Below are positions 4,195-61,253 of a DNA stretch of 64,000 nt, piece by piece. Source of the DNA: Desulfosudaceae bacterium (lineage in GTDB: Bacteria > Desulfobacterota > Desulfobacteria > Desulfobacterales > Desulfosudaceae). Positions within the stretch are counted from its first letter, which is position 1, and each line of letters opens with the position of its first letter. A program made the translations under genes and the position numbers. A model generated the notes under the pieces. It had not been told where the DNA came from. It worked only from the letters and a program-made list of their open reading frames with translations, and searched no databases. The DNA lies in contig CAXXDV010000003.1 in assembly GCA_963674745.2 (NCBI GenBank), positions 352,001-416,000 on the forward strand, read 5' to 3'.

Positions 4195-4243
4195 AATAAA
4201 ACAAAAAGCCGGGCTGCCCGTTTTTAATCAGGGCAACCCGGCT
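4195..4243 (-). terminator. Intrinsic terminator (riboswitch expression platform) in the PKS leader
   Basis: Minus strand AGCCGGGTTGCCC-loop-GGGCAGCCCGGCT followed by TTTTTGTTTT; the 5' arm is the 3' end of the aptamer. Confidence 0.85.
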
Positions 4244-4310
4244 GTCTTTTGTTTAAAGATCCTGGGCTTTCCGTCATCCGGTCATCCGGATGTTGGCTTT
4301 TTCCTTAATT
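4224..4310 (-). ncRNA. c-di-GMP-I (GEMM-I) class cyclic dinucleotide riboswitch
   Basis: Minus strand AAGGAAAAAGCCAAC-ATCCGG-ATGA-CCGGAT-GACGGAAAGCCCAGGATCT...AGACAGCCGGGTTGCC has the GEMM-I hallmarks (P2 hairpin, GACGGAAAGCC junction, AGACAGCCGGGUUGCC 3' end) known from deltaproteobacterial examples. Confidence 0.85.
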
Positions 4311-11950: not shown

Positions 11951-12009
11951 GTAGGGGCGGCCCCCTGTGGCCGCCCGACAAAAGGGCACCCACAGGGGGG
12001 TGCCCCTAC
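11951..12009. repeat. GTAG-type REP doublet (inverted pair)
   Basis: GTAGGGGCGGCC...GGCCGCCC paired with GGGCACCC...GGGTGCCCCTAC; related units at 13351 and 15035. Confidence 0.75.
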
Positions 12010-12085
12010 GTCAGCATGCGTTAAGAACCCGGACCAGATCAACCCGTGAAAGATTCGGCATAAGACAGAAAAATCGTAATGGAGG

Positions 12086-14851: not shown

Positions 14852-15034
14852 ATATTAAATTATGTCCGGAACAACTGCGGCAACAACGGATTCTCGGAGT
14901 TGGCCGATGAATTATCCCTGCTGCCGGAACGCCAACCCCGCCTCTTTAATCCCGACCAGCCTTATCCCTTCTGCTACCGGTAAAAATTCGGCTAACCCGG
15001 ATTTTATTCCGCAAGGCGCAGGTTGCATGGTAAT

Positions 15035-15150
15035 GTAGGGGCACCCTCCCTGTGGGAGCCTATTCAAAATCTAGCGGAAGGCTCTACAACATGCCTTACA
15101 TCCCGTCATTCCGGCCAGTGAAACGGAGCGGAACGTGAGCCGGAATCCAG
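15035..15150. repeat. Degenerate GTAG REP and CGTC-type palindromic repeat
   Basis: GTAGGGGCACCC...CTCTAC (15035-15087) and CGTCATTCCGGC...GCCGGAATCCAG (15104-15150). Confidence 0.6.
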
Positions 15151-15365
15151 GTATAAATTGATATGATTCATTACGATATAAAAAGGCACGGTGTTAAATG
15201 CCTATCGTTGGGGCAAAGCCGCAATGTTGACATCAGTAGCAAAATAAGATAAAAAATTTTCAATATCTTTTCCACTTAATTCGCGGGGATGGGGTTTACC
15301 ACCATGAAAATAAATTTAACGCTTAATCCAGTGGCAATAGGTGTGCTCAGTAATACCCTTTCAGC

Positions 15366-15553
15366 TTTCCATGTTTGCCCCCTTAATATAGTGATTAATG
15401 GAAAAGTAAAAAAATAAATATTGGAAAAACAAACATGGAAAATATGGGGGAATATTTTCCATGTTTGGGGGGTTAATATCATGATTAATGGAAAATTTTC
15501 CACCTATATACTCCAATAACATGGAAAAATTTTCCATTTATTAAACGTTATGC
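15366..15553 (+). promoter_or_regulatory. Putative attI-like cassette attachment region with TGGAAAA repeat array
   Basis: Ends in the core GTTATGC (15547-15553), complementary to the first cassette's GCATAAC; about 9 copies of TGGAAA(A) in both orientations upstream. Confidence 0.5.
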
Positions 15554-15578
15554 TCTAAAAAATATTCCCAATCATACT

Positions 15579-15809
15579 ATGGAACTTATGGGCACAATAT
15601 TCCAAATTATTCTTGGGCTTTTATGCGGGGTTTTTATAATCGCGTTTTTTGCGAGAAAATTTCACTTTGGACTTGAGTGGTTTGAACACGTCGGAAGGAA
15701 TGATGATAAAGCATTTGAAGCGTGGGGTAAAAGTTTAGATAAGTATAGCTGGACATTACTTTTAGGTGCAGTAGCATGTGCCTTGCTTTATAAATGGCTT
15801 TACATGTAA
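15579..15809 (+). CDS. Cassette 1: small two-TM membrane protein
   Basis: 76 aa, two hydrophobic helices, AT-rich, lies between GTTATGC and an attC. Confidence 0.7.
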   Translation: MELMGTIFQIILGLLCGVFIIAFFARKFHFGLEWFEHVGRNDDKAFEAWGKSLDKYSWTLLLGAVACALLYKWLYM

Positions 15810-15824
15810 CTAACAGAAATAAAA

Positions 15825-15947
15825 GCATAACAACACCATGCACTTGACTCGCAAGGGCGGGCGGCTTTTACATTATCGAGGTTCGGTGTTAACGTGGCTT
15901 TAGGAAAGTCACAGTTCCTTGCTCCCAAGTGACGGTGGACGTTATGC
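15825..15947 (+). mobile_element. attC site 1 (123 bp)
   Basis: GCATAAC ... GTTATGC termini with internal imperfect inverted repeats CACTTG/CAAGTG and GCAAGG/CCTTGC. Confidence 0.88.
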
Positions 15948-15961
15948 TTTATGAGGTAATA

Positions 15962-17326
15962 ATGAAAAATATTGTCTTAGCTATAGTTTTAATCATGTTG
16001 GTGTTTATGGCTTCATGTAACGATAAACATAGCAGCAATGATGAGCCTTCTGACATTTACGATTTGAATTGGAAACTTTCAATTATAGGCACTTCTGGAG
16101 AAAGTGTGGACACAATCATTACTGGCAGCACAGTAACCCTTATGCTGGAGATTATCAACGATACCCTTGAAGATATTGAGATTACATATGAGCATTGCAC
16201 CCCATATGATTTCCGTATTTACATGGGAGAAGAGTTGATTTGGGAATCGGATGCGGCAGATTGTTGGTATCTTGATAACGAGTGCATAGAAGCAGGAAGT
16301 AAACTTGTATTCACAGAAGAATTTACTGCTGTTCAATGGAATACTGACGAGCAACAATATTATGATTTACCCCCTGGGAAATATACCTTCCAGGCTAAAT
16401 TTTCAGGCACATCGGTGATTAACGCCGATTTAAACCTGACTATAGATGAGACGCTTGATTTTGATAATAATCCCAGCAGCAGTACAACTGAACCTAATTA
16501 CTCCAGCAATAGCACAGTTGACACCAATAACTCCGGCAGTAGCAAATTAAACACCTATATAGATCTTAGATATGCAGAATTTATGAATGAATCATATTAT
16601 TCAATAGCAGAAAATCTTGCTGGAATTTTAGGTGTTGCGCCAGTATTTTTTAATCAAAATCTTTTGGGTGATATTAGAGGTTCAGCACTTGGAGACAATA
16701 AATGGATTAAAGAAGGATATGAATATACTACCGCGAATGGCGCTTATATTACCGTTTGGGTGGATCATGATGATCAGCCGTATATTATAACATATCTTTT
16801 AAGACGTTTCGGGGCATTGGACGGTTTGTTATACGATCAGGATGAAGCTAATTCAAAAATTCAGACGGTATTAGAACAAATGGGAATACGGTTTGATGGG
16901 ACAGAGGATCTGAAATCAGGAGGACTTTCTTTTGGTGTTTTTCATATTAAATGGTACGAGATTAAATTTCAGCAAACATTTCAAAATGACTCTTTAGCAT
17001 ATCCCTACATTTATGCTGAAGTCGAAGGAAATACCGGAGAAATTAATTTTCTTAAAATTCACAGATGGTATTACAATTTAAGGGAAATAACTGCATTCTT
17101 ACCAGACGATAAATTAATAGAAATAGCAATTGATTATTATGAGTCGAGAGATGCGTATAGGTTTTTACGCGAAAATATAACATGTTATGGATATTATATA
17201 GTCAATGAAGTTTTGTGTAAAAAAGTGGGAAAAGCTAAAACTGGTCAATGGGGTTCTGAGGTATATGTATTTATAGATATTCAGAATGGAGAGATTGTAG
17301 ATACTGAAATAATTGCCTTCGGTTAG
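15962..17326 (+). CDS. Cassette 2: lipoprotein with a BsuPI-like N-terminal domain, Ser/Asn-rich linker and second domain
   Basis: Lipobox VFMASC, RBS GAGG, YDFRIY..ELIWES resembles BsuPI; AT-rich; flanked by attC sites. Confidence 0.7.
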   Translation: MKNIVLAIVLIMLVFMASCNDKHSSNDEPSDIYDLNWKLSIIGTSGESVDTIITGSTVTLMLEIINDTLEDIEITYEHCTPYDFRIYMGEELIWESDAADCWYLDNECIEAGSKLVFTEEFTAVQWNTDEQQYYDLPPGKYTFQAKFSGTSVINADLNLTIDETLDFDNNPSSSTTEPNYSSNSTVDTNNSGSSKLNTYIDLRYAEFMNESYYSIAENLAGILGVAPVFFNQNLLGDIRGSALGDNKWIKEGYEYTTANGAYITVWVDHDDQPYIITYLLRRFGALDGLLYDQDEANSKIQTVLEQMGIRFDGTEDLKSGGLSFGVFHIKWYEIKFQQTFQNDSLAYPYIYAEVEGNTGEINFLKIHRWYYNLREITAFLPDDKLIEIAIDYYESRDAYRFLRENITCYGYYIVNEVLCKKVGKAKTGQWGSEVYVFIDIQNGEIVDTEIIAFG

Positions 17327-17452
17327 TTGAAAAATATTGTTTAATTATAAATTAACCCAAAACCCTTCTTTTTTTGAAGTGTATTTAAACGCTGATATTT
17401 ATAAAGCGAATATATTTACCGAAGGAATTGTGAAGGGGCGATGATTTATATT

Positions 17453-17510
17453 GCATAACAATTCTCTTCACCAGATCGCTTACAGCGCCTGGTGAGCGAA
17501 GACGTTATGA
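17453..17510 (+). mobile_element. attC site 2 (58 bp)
   Basis: GCATAAC ... TCACCAG-ATCGCT-TAC-AGCGC-CTGGTGA ... GTTATGA; GCATAAC complements the GTTATGC that opens this cassette. Confidence 0.85.
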
Positions 17511-17539
17511 AACCATATCAATGAAAGTAAGGTCCAGGT

Positions 17540-17887
17540 ATGAATAAATTACTATTTATTATCGCTGTCATTGTTTTAGGTTTTTTTGCATATCAAGAAT
17601 TTGTTGGGAAAAAATTAGAGCCTTTATATGAAAAACCGTATGTTATCTTGTATGGAAAGCCAACTTGCGGTTGGTGTAAGAAAATGGAAAATGATTTGGA
17701 AGCACGAGATATCCCATATGAATATGCAAACCTGAAAGAACAGGCAGCAAATGATGAACTGCATCCAAGAATGCAAAAGGCTGGATTAAGAATAAGCAGT
17801 TATAAATTACCTGTAATGGACATCAACGGAAAGCTTTATATACGTCCCGAAATAGAAATTGTTGCAAAAGCCTATCAGGACATTTGA
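17540..17887 (+). CDS. Cassette 3: membrane-anchored glutaredoxin-like protein
   Basis: CGWC motif, LPVMDING cis-Pro region, N-terminal TM helix. Confidence 0.85.
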   Translation: MNKLLFIIAVIVLGFFAYQEFVGKKLEPLYEKPYVILYGKPTCGWCKKMENDLEARDIPYEYANLKEQAANDELHPRMQKAGLRISSYKLPVMDINGKLYIRPEIEIVAKAYQDI

Positions 17888-17924
17888 AATTTATATGTTG
17901 TTGTTAAACAATGGTAAAAATATT

Positions 17925-18048
17925 TCTCAACAACGCCACCCACACGCACTGGCAGGGGTGCGCGGCCTTATTTTTGGCATAGTTTGGTGTTAAACACACT
18001 TTAGCGAAATCCGAAAATCCTGCTCGCCGGTGGCTGCCGCCGTTGAGT
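17925..18048 (+). mobile_element. attC site 3 (124 bp)
   Basis: TCTCAAC ... GTTGAGT, internal GCAGG/CCTGC and GCCACC/GGTGGC, central GGTGTTAA...CTTTAG shared with attC1. Confidence 0.75.
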
Positions 18049-28557: not shown

Positions 28558-28690
28558 TCCTTTTGGTAAAATATCCGGCAGTCAGTTTCTTGTCTACAAA
28601 CTAACCATCTGTGCCGCCCCCACCTAAACGCCAATAACTATTTGTTTTTAATCAATTTTCGAAAATATTAAAGTATTCGTTAATATTTAC

Positions 28691-32400: not shown

Positions 32401-32678
32401 TATCTTTTTTTGCCGTTGACCGGATCATCTTGAGCACACCTGTTGTTTTGCCGTGCCCCTACATAAATTCGCATCCCGCGAATTTATCCCTGCCCCCCTT
32501 TGGGCTCTGCTTCACATCCGGTATGTTTGTTTTCAGGTCACATTCACAAAAAAAAGATCATCTCATGTATGCCTGAAGGTCATTATATGAATATGTAAAA
32601 CCTATTCTTCTATTCTTCTATTCTTCTGTAATTCTCGAATCTTTTTTAAAAACAAATAGTTGTTCTTTCCGGTCGGTT

Positions 32679-57676: not shown

Positions 57677-58186
57677 ATGTCAATTCTTGAAATCGTCACC
57701 TATCCGGCTGATATTCTGCGGGACGGTGCCAAACCGGTCGAGCAGATTGATGAGCGGCTGCAGCAATTGATAGATGCCATGGCTGAGACCATGTATGCCA
57801 ATGCCGGTGTCGGGCTGGCGGCTGTTCAGGTGGGCAGCGACCAACAGGTGATTATATATGATATATCGGAAGAGCGGGAGAAACGGTGTTATAAGGCTTT
57901 GATAAATCCACGGATTATTGCCTCCGAAGATGAGTTTTTATCCGAGCGGGAGGGCTGCCTGAGTGTTCCTGAATTGCGGGTTGACATTAAACGGTCTTTC
58001 TGCGTTGGTGTGGACGCAATGGACCGGGACGGAAACCCTGTCCGCATTGACGCCGAAGACCTGGAAGCCGTGGTCCTTCAGCATGAAATCGATCATTTAA
58101 ACGGGGTCCTGATCCTGGATAAGGCCAGTCGTTTGAAGCGGCAGTTGTACAAGAAAAAATGCGCAAAAAGGGCCGCACAGAAATGA
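57677..58186 (+). CDS. def: Peptide deformylase
   Basis: GVGLAAVQ, EGCLS, QHEIDHLNG. Confidence 0.96.
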   Translation: MSILEIVTYPADILRDGAKPVEQIDERLQQLIDAMAETMYANAGVGLAAVQVGSDQQVIIYDISEEREKRCYKALINPRIIASEDEFLSEREGCLSVPELRVDIKRSFCVGVDAMDRDGNPVRIDAEDLEAVVLQHEIDHLNGVLILDKASRLKRQLYKKKCAKRAAQK

Positions 58187-59130
58187 CCGGGAATTTGAAG
58201 ATTCTGTTTTTCGGGACTTCGGAATACGCGGTTCCCGGTATTAAGGCGCTGGTTGACGAAGGCTGTCATGTGCCACTGGTCATCACCCAACCGGACAGGC
58301 CCCGGGGACGCGGTCGGCGTCTGTCGCCGACACCGGTCAAAGTGGCCGCACAGGAGTTGAATATCGAGGTGGCACAGCCCGAATCGGTTCGTGGCCAGGA
58401 ATTTATCAATGATATTTCCGCCCTTTCCGCGGATCTGATGGTGGTCATTTCATATGGCAGGATTCTGCCCAGGGCTGTGCTTGACGTTCCCCGTCTGGGA
58501 GCTGTCAATATTCATCCTTCTCTTTTGCCGGCCTACCGCGGTCCGTCACCTATCCAGTGGGCTGTGGTCAACATGGAACCCGTCACCGGCGTGACGAGTA
58601 TTTTTATGGATGAGGGGATGGATTCGGGCGACATTATTCTGTCTGAGACCACCCCGGTTGACCCCGGTGAAACCGCCCAGGTGCTTCATGACCGTCTGGC
58701 TGTTGTAGGGGCAACGGTTTTGATAAAGACCGTCAAGTTGGTGGCGGAAGGTAAGGCCCGGCCGGTTCCCCAGGATCATTCCCGGGCGACCCTTGCGCCG
58801 CTGTTGACCAAGGCGCACGGCCGCATTGACTGGCAAAAATCAGCGCGGCAGCTGGTGGCCTTCATCAATGGTATGACACCCTGGCCCGGGGCATTTACCT
58901 GTTTGGACAACAAACGATACAAAATTTTAAAGGCAGAGCACATCCCTGCCAGCGAAACCAGTTCGCCCGGAACCGTGTTGAAGAGTTTTCCCGGTGAGCT
59001 CAGGGTCGCGACCGGTGAGGGGGTACTTTCTGTTCTGATGATCCAGGGCGCATCCGGAAAGGCGCTTTCAATCGCTGATTTCCTGCGGGGTTCGCCTATC
59101 CCGGAGGGTTCGGTTTTTTCAAATGGTTGA
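58183..59130 (+). CDS. fmt: Methionyl-tRNA formyltransferase
   Basis: TQPDRPRGRG, NIHPSLLPAYRGPSPI, MDEGMDSG, PWPGA; ATGA overlap with def. Confidence 0.96.
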   Translation: MTGNLKILFFGTSEYAVPGIKALVDEGCHVPLVITQPDRPRGRGRRLSPTPVKVAAQELNIEVAQPESVRGQEFINDISALSADLMVVISYGRILPRAVLDVPRLGAVNIHPSLLPAYRGPSPIQWAVVNMEPVTGVTSIFMDEGMDSGDIILSETTPVDPGETAQVLHDRLAVVGATVLIKTVKLVAEGKARPVPQDHSRATLAPLLTKAHGRIDWQKSARQLVAFINGMTPWPGAFTCLDNKRYKILKAEHIPASETSSPGTVLKSFPGELRVATGEGVLSVLMIQGASGKALSIADFLRGSPIPEGSVFSNG

Positions 59131-59140
59131 TGCCGGTCCG

Positions 59141-59282
59141 GTGATTAAAGTTTTATGTGTTTAAGTGTTTACGTGATTAGCGCCCAAACCGGGCACAGTC
59201 TGCCTTCAAACCGGTAAGTAATAGTGTTGTTTAAAAGTTTATGTGCTTAAGTGGTTATGTGATTAGGTGATTAAGTGATCAT
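59141..59282 (+). repeat. Octamer tandem repeats GTGNTTAN (two blocks)
   Basis: 59141-59180 and 59227-59282: GTGATTAA, GTGTTTAA, GTGTTTAC, GTGATTAG, GTGCTTAA, GTGGTTAT and similar units. Confidence 0.8.
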
Positions 59283-59399
59283 CGTCCCACCCGGCTGTTT
59301 TTCAAAACCAGATCTGCAAAAATAAATAGTGTTATAACTTGGGAAGTGGTTAAAGGTTTAATGTTATGTTTAAAAAAAACAACGCCTCTGGAAGAGTAT

Positions 59400-59609
59400 A
59401 TGAAAAATAATGATGATTCTAAGATAGTGTTTTCGGGGACGACAATTTCTAAGAAAAATGCAAATAAAGTCGGCCTTGGATTTATCTTTGGTCTAGCAGG
59501 AGTTGTCTTTTCCGTGGTTGTATTTGATAATAACAAACCCGCCGCATATGTGACATGCACAATTTGCATAGTGGCCGGGTTTGTTGTTGGGAATAAAATA
59601 TTTAAATAA
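59400..59609 (+). CDS. Solo cassette gene: small two-TM membrane protein
   Basis: 69 aa, AT-rich, two hydrophobic helices; core GTTATGT at 59363-59369 upstream and an attC downstream. Confidence 0.65.
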   Translation: MKNNDDSKIVFSGTTISKKNANKVGLGFIFGLAGVVFSVVVFDNNKPAAYVTCTICIVAGFVVGNKIFK

Positions 59610-59613
59610 TTTA

Positions 59614-59734
59614 ACATATCAACACCATGCATTTGATTCGCAGGGGCGGACTGTTTATAGTATCGTGGTTCGCTGTTAACGTGGCTTTGCAAAGGTCACT
59701 GTTCCCTGCGCCCAAGTGACGGTGGACGATAGTA
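59614..59734 (+). mobile_element. attC site, near copy of attC1, with ATC/GAT cores
   Basis: Aligns end to end with 15825-15947 (AACACCATGCA..TGTTAACGTGGCTTT..CCCAAGTGACGGTGGAC). Confidence 0.85.
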
Positions 59735-59775
59735 GTAAGGTTGTATGGGTGGGCAAGAACTTTGGAAGGGATAAC

Positions 59776-59823
59776 CTAACCACTTAAACACCTAATCACT
59801 TAACCACATAACCACAAAATCAT
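59776..59823 (-). repeat. Inverted copy of the GTGNTTAN octamer array
   Basis: CTAACCAC-TTAAACAC-CTAATCAC-TTAACCAC-ATAACCAC on the plus strand. Confidence 0.8.
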
Positions 59824-59888
59824 AATATGGCTTTTGATGAACGTCTTCCCACTTGTTTTCCGAATGCCTTTGAGAAAAGACTGATTCC

Positions 59889-61253
59889 ATGAAATCCGAT
59901 CCGCGCGTCACGGCAGTAAATATCCTCATTTCTCTTGAATCCGGGCGACGGACACTCGATGACCTTGTCGATACGCTTCTGACCCGACAGGCTATCCCGG
60001 AAAAACGGGACAGGGCACTGGCGACGACCCTGTTGTACGGTGTGTTACGACACCGGATGACACTGGACTGGGTGATCCGGCAACTTTCCAGCACCGCCTT
60101 TGAAAAAATAGATCCGGTTGTTCTGTCCATCCTCAGAACCGGTCTTTATCAGATCCTGTTTCTGGACAGAGTTCCGGATTACGCCGCAGTTGATTCGTCC
60201 GTCAGGATGGTCAAAAAAATGGCCGGTCCCCGTCTGGGTAATTATGTAAACGGCGTATTACGCGCTGCTACCAGGAAGCGCGATGCACTGGATTTCCCTG
60301 ACAGGTCAGCCGATCCGGTGAAATGGCTGTCGGTGACCCGGTCTTTTCCGGAATGGATGCTTCAACGCTGGATGAAACGGTATGGCCTGGCGGACACCAT
60401 CCGGTACTGTGAAATGACCAATCGTATCCCCGCCATAACCTTACGGGTGAACACGCTTAAAACGGTTTATGCCCGGGCCAGGGAAGCAATCGGCCGGGAG
60501 GCGGCACACGTTGAGGACGGGCGGTTTGCGCCCGACGCGATTTCGCTCTCCTCTCCGAAAGATTCAATAGACGTGCTGGAAAGTTTTGTGAGCGGCTGGT
60601 TTCAGGTCCAGGGTGAAGCAGCACAACTGGTCTGCCTGCTGCTGGATCCGCAACCGAAAGAGCGCGTGCTGGATGCCTGTGCCGGGTTGGGCGGTAAAAC
60701 GGGCTATATCGCGCAACTGATGGAGAACTGCGGAAAAGTTGTGGCGACTGATTCCGATAAGCGAAAATTGGGGCTGCTGGCCGGGGAAATGGACCGTCTC
60801 GGGGCATCAATCGTGGAAACCCGGCAGGTCGACTGGTTAAAAAAACCATCGACGATTCCGCTAACGGAAAAATTCGACCGCGTCTTGGCCGATTGCCCCT
60901 GTTCGGGCATGGGGGTGTTGCGCCGGAATCCGGATATCAAGTGGTCTGCCTCAGTAAAGGACTTTTCAAGGTATCAGAAAAATCAGGTCCGTTTTTTATC
61001 CGTTCTGGCTGATTATGTTCGAACCGACGGTTTTTTGATATATGTGGTTTGCAGCACGGAACCTGAAGAAAACGAAAGGGTGATTGAACGGTTTTTAGAT
61101 AATCGCCGGGATTTTTATGTGGACCGGAAGTTCGGTGGAAGGGAAGGCCGGTTGCGGCCGTTTATCAATGATACGGGTTATTTTAAGACATCGATTTATC
61201 CCCATGATCTGGATGGGTTTTTCGGTGTGCGGTTAAAGAAAAAACAATCATGA
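59889..61253 (+). CDS. rsmB: 16S rRNA m5C967 methyltransferase RsmB/Sun
   Basis: NusB-like N-terminus, VLDACAGLGGKT, DCPCSGMG..RRNPDIKW, CSTEPEENE, DGFF. Confidence 0.95.
   Translation: MKSDPRVTAVNILISLESGRRTLDDLVDTLLTRQAIPEKRDRALATTLLYGVLRHRMTLDWVIRQLSSTAFEKIDPVVLSILRTGLYQILFLDRVPDYAAVDSSVRMVKKMAGPRLGNYVNGVLRAATRKRDALDFPDRSADPVKWLSVTRSFPEWMLQRWMKRYGLADTIRYCEMTNRIPAITLRVNTLKTVYARAREAIGREAAHVEDGRFAPDAISLSSPKDSIDVLESFVSGWFQVQGEAAQLVCLLLDPQPKERVLDACAGLGGKTGYIAQLMENCGKVVATDSDKRKLGLLAGEMDRLGASIVETRQVDWLKKPSTIPLTEKFDRVLADCPCSGMGVLRRNPDIKWSASVKDFSRYQKNQVRFLSVLADYVRTDGFLIYVVCSTEPEENERVIERFLDNRRDFYVDRKFGGREGRLRPFINDTGYFKTSIYPHDLDGFFGVRLKKKQS

Follow-up and report, generated by a model that had tools for sequence, protein, structure and literature searches.

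The 758-bp spacer between the housekeeping genes fmt and rsmB (fmt stop at 59130, rsmB start at 59889) of a Desulfosudaceae bacterium probably holds a solo integron gene cassette that entered, at a GAT site, the loop of a hairpin element made of lineage-specific octamer arrays. Coordinates refer to the window, which is the whole 64-kb stretch of DNA analysed here, unless they are prefixed C1, C2 or C3 for contigs of the 5.5-Mb genome (G000). The five parts described between the two genes by the initial annotation (tandem octamers, G|TTATGT, a small AT-rich membrane gene, an attC site and the same octamers inverted) are all present in their places. The two layers of the spacer, both of known kinds, are non-essential DNA and unrelated to each other. 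The combination, which the initial annotation had proposed as a new one with an attC cassette as the payload of inverted arrays, does exist, but it was found only once in the genome, and the meeting of cassette and array looks accidental.

Downstream of fmt, the spacer starts with octamer array 1 (59141-59179, plus strand), which begins 10 nt past the fmt stop and consists of five GTGNTTAN units, two of them degenerate, according to Tandem Repeats Finder; its strict chain covers three units at 59157-59180. The array is followed by module 1 of what is termed here the 'type B' element (59180-59238, plus strand; 59 nt, TTAGCGYCC..CCGGGCA..CAAACCGRTAAGTAAYAGTG..TTAAAAGTTTA), the small hairpin of which is degenerate in this copy, and by array 2 (59239-59282, plus strand; five units, C3:411243-411282), detected both by Tandem Repeats Finder and by the chain scan. 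Module 2, the left core (59283-59363, plus strand; 81 nt, CGTCCCACCCGGCTGTTTTT..), aligned with about eight other post-array sequences and ends in degenerate octamers (a degenerate third run at ~59329-59363) and ...AATG, the last G being the target G of the cassette junction. The next part is the cassette itself (59364-59728, plus strand; 365 bp), whose first letters are the TT of G|TTATGT and whose last is the G of the attC R'. It is followed by the right core (59729-59773, unstranded), 45 nt of unique sequence whose first two letters are the AT of the GAT presumed as target, and by the inverted octamer array (59774-59822, minus strand; strict chain of five units, C3:411776-411815), which reads NTAANCAC on the plus strand. 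A three-unit octamer pattern allowing up to one mismatch had seven matches in the window, all within 59157-59815, and none in 100 dinucleotide-preserving shuffles. The first layer is an intergenic repeat element of the form array-module 1-array-module 2...inverted array, set flush with the gene ends, whose arms of tandem GTGNTTAN in inverted orientation could fold into a long imperfect hairpin. The idea that the inverted arrays could pair is supported by prediction: the minimum-free-energy fold of the spacer RNA joins array 2 and the inverted array in a stem that encloses the cassette, at -213.9 kcal/mol against -189.3 +/- 5.2 kcal/mol for 20 shuffles (z -4.7).

The cassette holds a single open reading frame (ORF) of 69 aa (59400-59609, plus strand; likeliest start ATG at 59400, stop at 59607-59609), which ends 4 nt before R''. 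Its GC content is 0.35 vs 0.56 for fmt, and two hydrophobic stretches of 19 and 17 residues were recognized by eye. The ORF is an ORFan, as is common among cassette ORFs: a protein search returned only the query itself, no Pfam family matched and no paralogue was found in the genome by tblastn. The attC site (59614-59734, plus strand) is a 121-nt element with R'' ACATATC at 59614-59620 and R' GATAGTA at 59728-59734, whereby the crossover point falls between 59728 and 59729. The left end of the cassette, G|TTATGT (59363-59369), complements its own R'' at 6 of 7 positions. At C3:2330342-2331423, a regular cassette carries an identical R'' word and starts with G|TTATGTTTTAAAA; by this parallel and by the R'' complementarity, the cassette boundaries 59364-59728 are credible.

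A census with our own nhmmer profile, iterated to convergence and used in place of IntegronFinder, gave 90 attC sites of 119 nt in the genome, arranged in co-oriented clusters of 2-33, three of which adjoin full-length, stop-free intI genes above the TIGR02249 cut-off. The fmt-rsmB site is a member of this family (nhmmer E 4.5e-20; 74.1 bits, third lowest of the 90) and one of two isolated attC sites in the genome, the nearest attC being 41.6 kb, an intI fragment 44 kb and the nearest full intI 383 kb away. The view of a solo cassette from the genome's own pool, lying outside any integron, is upheld by this family membership, by the distance, by the well-formed boundaries and by the absence of the insert in relatives. 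Calling its attC almost identical to the copy 44 kb away was too strong: that site (attC1 of the initial annotation; 15827-15944, plus strand) belongs to the same family, but the fmt-rsmB attC and the 15826-15944 copy share only 82-85% identity (83.2% over 119 nt by BLAST). The latter is part of a decayed integron in the window, together with a second attC (17929-18044) and a piece of an intI gene interrupted by two stops (15178-15351, minus strand). The cassette ORFs of this decayed integron (15178-18044) include a 76-aa membrane protein, a 457-465-aa lipoprotein-like protein with a weak BsuPI match and a glutaredoxin-like protein, and a 66-nt direct repeat (15366-15431 / 15456-15521) is located where the attI region might be.

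The triplets of the fmt-rsmB attC are ATC and GAT, the conserved form being AAC and GTT. Among the 90 sites, the R'' triplet is AAC in 80 and ATC in 7 including the fmt-rsmB copy, and the R' triplet is aligned as GTT in 87 and is GAT at fmt-rsmB only; of the remaining two R' sites, one has GTT in the printed flank and the other, which is another solo and decayed site, has GTC. Since ATC occurs naturally among the R'' sites (7 of 90), only the R' change is unusual. A compensatory double mutation from AAC/GTT to ATC/GAT under selection for the stem was considered and rejected, as six other sites pair ATC with GTT. Integron integrases have been reported to insert cassettes at genomic 'attG' sites with the consensus 5'-GWT-3', cut after G, and 3400 solo attC sites without integrase (SALINs) were counted in 2469 of 21,105 complete genomes (Loot et al., 10.1101/2022.09.11.507474). 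The GAT in R', being unique, fits the hybrid site that an insertion at GWT leaves behind. In the second layer, the cassette attC would have recombined with a genomic attG site 5'-G|AT-3' by means of an integron integrase; such an insertion would leave the target G followed by TTATGT on the left and the attC G followed by the target AT on the right, and the result would be a SALIN. On the points described in that study, the locus resembles SALINs and attG insertions in having an isolated ORF and attC far from any intI or att site, a junction fitting 5'-GWT-3' and an insertion that spares coding sequence and is co-oriented with the host operon. It differs in that the integrases here are of a sulfate-reducer lineage and not IntI1-3, in that the insertion is deduced from the junctions and in that the target lies inside a repeat element.

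Without GTT in its R', the cassette is probably fixed in place and decaying. The fmt-rsmB attC is 86.2% identical to the consensus of its subfamily (rank 13 of 16), and on the bottom strand the expected stem is the minimum-free-energy structure but a weak one at -15.1 kcal/mol (z -1.0), 26 of 200 shuffles folding no less well; the bottom strand of the window copy at 15815-15955 folds at -23.9 kcal/mol (z -3.9). The site thus appears more decayed than most, which fits a site that can no longer recombine. No Rfam family reached its gathering score, whether in the spacer or at the two attC sites. A promoter scan gave eight promoter-like sites vs 1.9 expected in AT-rich DNA and two weak terminator-like sites, which were not used as evidence. 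Because the cassette is co-oriented with fmt and rsmB, read-through from fmt could express it. The anatomy, the family memberships, the distribution of both kinds of repeat over the genome, the lack of the insert in relatives and the predicted pairing are what the data show; that an integrase inserted the cassette, that the element was there before it and that it is expressed at all is inferred.

The neighbouring genes fmt (methionyl-tRNA formyltransferase; 58159-59130, plus strand, with def upstream) and rsmB (16S rRNA m5C methyltransferase; 59889-61253, plus strand) were named by recognition of their ORF translations and by tblastn synteny in relatives. By tblastn, fmt was found in all 30 fetched loci, and rsmB directly follows it in 21 of 29 loci of relatives, the other eight having no rsmB in the fetched DNA. 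The suggested comparison of the spacer across relatives was run on these 21 loci: the insert is absent, the spacers are short (~-1 to 366 bp; for the two congeneric genomes, ~19 and ~69 bp) and none contains arrays, with a single-octamer match in 1 of 21 (L043). The spacers of G002 (L021) and G010 (L022) hold CCTTGAACCC / CCTCGAACCC words, which are the complement of GGGTTCAAGG / GGGTTCGAGG at the inner array ends in G000; these words hint at an older and wider repeat vocabulary in the family.

A search for closer relatives gave only two distant loci in the Joint Genome Institute (JGI) metagenomes (57% and 43%) and a best match of 71% among genome contigs. None of the sequencing runs listed for the stretch is on record as RNA. 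In run X4, a 267-nt contig over 59087-59303 comes from a relative with arrays at this place and is ~92-96% identical in fmt. A second X4 contig of 435 nt matches 59737-60022 only, the remaining 157 nt having no match in 58300-60700. The right arm is one octamer shorter in an X4 contig. X4 gave no cover over 59434-59595 and a depth of 0.24 over 59353-59433, in the ORF stretch; the cover over 59596-59757 stems from other attC copies, and no contig bridges the site. Run X3, which has the same organism label, gave short identical pieces only. Within the genome itself, no paralogue was found for the core stretch on either side of the cassette.

The octamer arrays are a genome-wide family. Taken as chains of at least three GTGNTTAN units with at most one mismatch per unit, 214 arrays with 1132 units were counted, 212 of them intergenic, whereby intergenic status and gene ends rely on crude longest-ORF gene calls. 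Their size varies from 3 to 19 units with a mode of four (83 of 214), and 97 of the 144 array loci consist of one array each. Where two neighbours lie no more than 1.5 kb apart, they are convergent (plus, then minus) in 33 cases and divergent in 3. The convergent cores are heterogeneous, with a median of 228 nt; 26 of the 33 are without an ORF of 60 aa and 7 have an ORF of at least 60 aa. Four of the seven, 490-905 nt long, are AT-rich and carry ORFans, namely fmt-rsmB, C3:272789, C3:2269041 and C3:2590249, and no Pfam family was found among the ORFans of these four. The arrays point away from the nearest gene: on its 3' side GTGNTTAN stands in gene sense in 104 cases vs 19, and on its 5' side arrays reading NTAANCAC prevail 56 vs 35. 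Single arrays obey the same strand rule and mostly lie tens of nucleotides from a stop codon. Only 1 of the 90 attC sites is near an octamer array, the other 89 all being at least 9.7 kb from any array. With arrays spread over the whole genome and nearly all attC sites far from them, the arrays are independent of the cassette, and the assumption that they belong to it or mark cassette insertions is not supported; most of their cores hold no gene.

The rule of gene end and strand has a precedent in the GGGNATC heptamers of Xanthomonas and Nostoc, described as occurring genome-wide in 2-26 units, four being preferred, with over-representation in non-coding DNA (Rehm et al. 2015, PMC4692102). These heptamers were reported in sense orientation within 50 bp after stops or in antisense before ORFs, and most of them are transcribed (PMC4692102). 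As far as that account goes, the same gene-end/strand rule and the same preference for four units were measured for the GTGNTTAN arrays; the differences are that the units here are octamers and that GTGNTTAN, having no G-tracts, cannot form a G-quadruplex. Since GTGNTTAN is without a G-run, the quadruplex rationale for four units is not transferable.

In the arms, the common order is (RGTTTTAR)n, (GTGNTTAN)n, GTGGTCGGGGTTTGAGG and a small GGCCCGCTTTGCGGGG hairpin, often with other repeats next to it. The 'type B' form, with conserved modules 1 and 2 flanking a short array, has ~8-10 copies in the genome, and homologues of module 1 stand between or before arrays at C3:220564, C3:2269564, C2:104462, C1:1986453 and other places. 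At C3:2268937-2269657, the layout is the mirror image of the fmt-rsmB element with another ORFan as payload and no attC. The consensus RNA structure of 'type B' has only a 5-bp hairpin in common, with one compensatory change seen by eye, and this hairpin is broken in the fmt-rsmB copy. A miniature inverted-repeat transposable element (MITE) or a transposon with terminal inverted repeats (TIRs) was rejected as the nature of the array elements, since no target-site duplication was seen and the cores are heterogeneous. The search for duplications was made by eye at the outer borders of the 33 elements, where fuzzy borders could hide short ones. Between distant convergent arrays, no transposase or reverse transcriptase was found; the genes there are ordinary and unrelated, one being IS110-like. 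Repetitive extragenic palindromic (REP) sequences and bacterial interspersed mosaic elements (BIMEs), as well as BOX and Correia-type repeats, are modular, hairpin-forming and intergenic, often stand just past stop codons and have variable internal repeats. The array elements share with them the modular, hairpin-forming, intergenic character, the frequent position just past stop codons and the variable number of internal repeats, but their arms are tandem octamers and not a single palindrome, and no associated transposase was identified. The heptamers of cyanobacterial short tandemly repeated repetitive (STRR) sequences are a related repeat class.

Several other repeats were observed in and around these elements. 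Outside many GTGNTTAN arrays, there are runs of GGTTTTAG / AGTTTTAA octamers, i.e. (TTTTAGGG)n, for example at C3:2180929-2180968 and C3:272709-272748, the G/T-rich strand of which always runs 5'->3' toward the element centre; a telomerase-like origin of such inward-pointing G/T-rich arrays is an idea. GC-rich REP-like palindromes starting with GTAGGGGC (e.g. GTAGGGGCACGGCGTGCCGTGCCC) occur in the window at 11995-12019, 15025-15049 and 32453-32480, and throughout the genome they are often nested in the cores of octamer elements. The convergent pair at C3:272789-273693 has a 905-nt core with a membrane ORFan of 57-66 aa. Behind this ORFan lies a large compound palindrome, rich in GC (..GCACCCCGGCAACAAGTTGCCGGGG..CACTGACAACTTGTTGTCAGTG..), which does not belong to the 119-nt attC family. 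At C1:234460-235538, there are ~7 tandem copies of a 168-bp unit, each with two ~60-nt modules ending in 2-3 octamers, and similar 60-68-nt modules with short arrays were seen at C1:237709-237948 and C1:239288-239519.

The highest density of arrays was seen in polysaccharide and capsule clusters (C1:120-240 kb, C3:566-592 kb and C3:1097-1140 kb); in these, like-oriented arrays stand between the sugar-pathway genes and the modules interleaved with them. The latter comprise MazE/MazF, RelB/ParE, AbiE and HepT/nucleotidyltransferase pairs, DUF4143 ATPases, a Schlafen/AlbA_2 protein, a DUF1016/YhcG nuclease and the gene of a 23S-rRNA-IVS protein (IVS, intervening sequence). Of the 15 DUF4143 genes, a count by eye placed 9 or 10 no farther than ~1.5 kb from the nearest array; plain housekeeping genes, der and rarA among them, are flanked by arrays as well. 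The gene for the 23S-rRNA-IVS protein (PF05635; C3:569905-570240) has an MBOAT gene on one side and glycosyltransferase genes on the other. Around it stand inverted arms built of a different octamer, (GGTTGAGR)n / (CTCAACCC)n, 29-36 nt long and 81-93% complementary, the whole spanning C3:569817-570336. The other PF05635 gene of the genome stands between two direct GTGNTTAN arrays. The initial annotation had pointed to inverted arrays of short repeats around small intervening genes in operons of other bacteria, and the gene at C3:569905-570240 is a counterpart within this genome.

The distribution of the family was followed with a four-unit pattern, counted as matching windows: 395 in this genome (G000), 49 and 27 in two genomes of the same genus (G001 and G002), 4 in a neighbouring genus (G003), and 62 and 5 in genomes of the same order outside the family (G293 and G265). 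None of the 27 other relatives matched. In an even sample of the phylum, 3 of 401 genomes had the pattern (G000, G265 and G293), and outside the order it was absent from all 387 sampled genomes; the pattern read backwards had no match in the relatives or in the phylum sample. Because the pattern is confined to few genomes, the array family is young and patchy. Among viral contigs, 26 stretches match the four-unit pattern, mostly as monotonous simple repeats in unrelated viruses. Five related viral contigs (L069, L071, L076, L088 and L091) carry repeated (GTGYTTAA)5-8 arrays, each followed by a GC hairpin GTGGGGTCGCGGACCCCAC and a T-run, a style that resembles the arrays of this genome.

Instead of forming a repeat element that happened to receive a cassette, the inverted arrays might act as a bracket, in line with the looping-out and safe harbour proposed by the initial annotation: the stem predicted in the transcript would be cut, as RNase III cuts rRNA intervening sequences, and the ~500-nt payload would be removed or insulated, making the spacer a safe harbour. 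The predicted stem between array 2 and the inverted array (z -4.7), the preference for convergent orientation (33 vs 3), the ORFan payloads in 4 of 33 convergent pairs and the inverted arms of the PF05635 gene at C3:569905-570240 speak for it. ORF-bearing intervening sequences of 23S rRNA are cut out by RNase III, and the likeness consists of inverted flanks predicted to pair around a small inserted gene and of the arm-bearing PF05635 gene in this genome; in contrast to them, the fmt-rsmB element lies in an mRNA operon, and its payload is an integron cassette and not a PF05635 gene. Such a bracketing role is nevertheless unlikely, as 26 of the 33 convergent cores have no 60-aa ORF, 97 of the 144 array loci are single and unable to form a stem, and the module-flanking arrays of the polysaccharide clusters are direct, not inverted. 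Moreover, cutting by RNase III would split the fmt and rsmB messages and not rejoin them.

Alternatively, the arrays could be binding sites for an abundant DNA-binding protein of the nucleoid-associated or global-regulator type, with the cassette merely caught between two of them. Tandem 8-bp units with a mode of four (83 of 214) and opposite-strand pairs at variable distance, like those of Geobacter class 1 (PMC2700814), are in line with this possibility, which we hold to be doubtful: the strict relation to gene end and strand suggests, to at least the same degree, a rule at the level of RNA or of insertion, no candidate protein was identified and the copy number ranges over 3-19 units. In Geobacter metallireducens, class 1 sites were described as four tandem GTTGCTYN octamers in 24 opposite-strand pairs, with IHF/HU-type proteins suggested as binders, and class 3 sites as five tandem MTYCTGA heptamers; one pair lies between proBA, and the sites were read as binding sites of unknown global regulators (PMC2700814). 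According to that description, the likeness extends to lineage-specific 7-8-nt tandem units, opposite-strand pairs and an intergenic position even within housekeeping operons (proBA; fmt-rsmB). The word is another one, there are 214 arrays here vs 24 pairs, and array length is variable and conserved extra modules are present.

A more far-reaching proposal is that GTGNTTAN and the wider set of inverted 7-8-nt arrays serve as arms in a second cassette system, independent of integrons, that parks swappable accessory modules between genes of operons, i.e. toxin-antitoxin pairs, DUF4143 ATPases, IVS-protein genes and ORFans. As each octamer carries a GWT triplet, these arms would be preferred landing pads for integron cassettes. 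We regard this proposal as improbable. If it were true, the locus would be a physical link between two cassette systems and not an accident.

The least likely of the alternatives is that no integrase acted at a GWT site at all, the cassette being the last remnant of an old cassette array or having been captured with flanking DNA by the process, whatever it is, that fills the cores of array elements, and GAT being an ordinary mutation; other convergent pairs do hold unrelated AT-rich payloads without attC, few members of the subfamily are as diverged as this attC, and the window has a decayed integron with a stop-bearing intI fragment, but both junctions lie exactly where integrase chemistry places them, no trace of a second attC, an attI or an intI was found within 41 kb, and the spacer is short in relatives.

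Some observations weigh against the insertion of a cassette at GAT into a pre-existing array element. A decaying site could have passed from GTT to GAT by simple point mutation. The relatives are too distant to align at the locus, so that the target G|AT is a reconstruction and no empty site was seen. One of the only two isolated attC sites falls in an array element (~1% of the genome), which is a mild hint against an accidental meeting, and the four ORFan payloads in 33 pairs, along with the toxin-antitoxin and ATPase modules separated by arrays, may reflect a real relation of the arrays to inserted genes.

Apart from the spacer, a 34-nt inverted repeat (82% complementary; 28633-28666 / 32631-32664) flanks ~4 kb of the window and may represent the ends of a mobile element; just inside it, an 8-nt tandem repeat, CTATTCTT x3, was found at 32602-32627. 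A c-di-GMP-I riboswitch aptamer (RF01051) lies at 4229-4307 on the minus strand, with 48.9 bits, above the gathering score.

Overall, inserted at GAT as proposed here, the cassette is a natural example, from an environmental sulfate reducer, of the exit of an integron cassette to GWT sites, with a junction signature that can still be read and a position inside a housekeeping operon. The arrays are more interesting than the cassette: they are a large and patchy family within an old, unexplained class of 7-8-nt tandem repeats, and their inability to form G-quadruplexes argues against a quadruplex explanation for this class. In the polysaccharide clusters, moreover, defence-type and toxin-antitoxin modules have arrays at their borders. 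All this makes the genome a good place to test what the arrays do.

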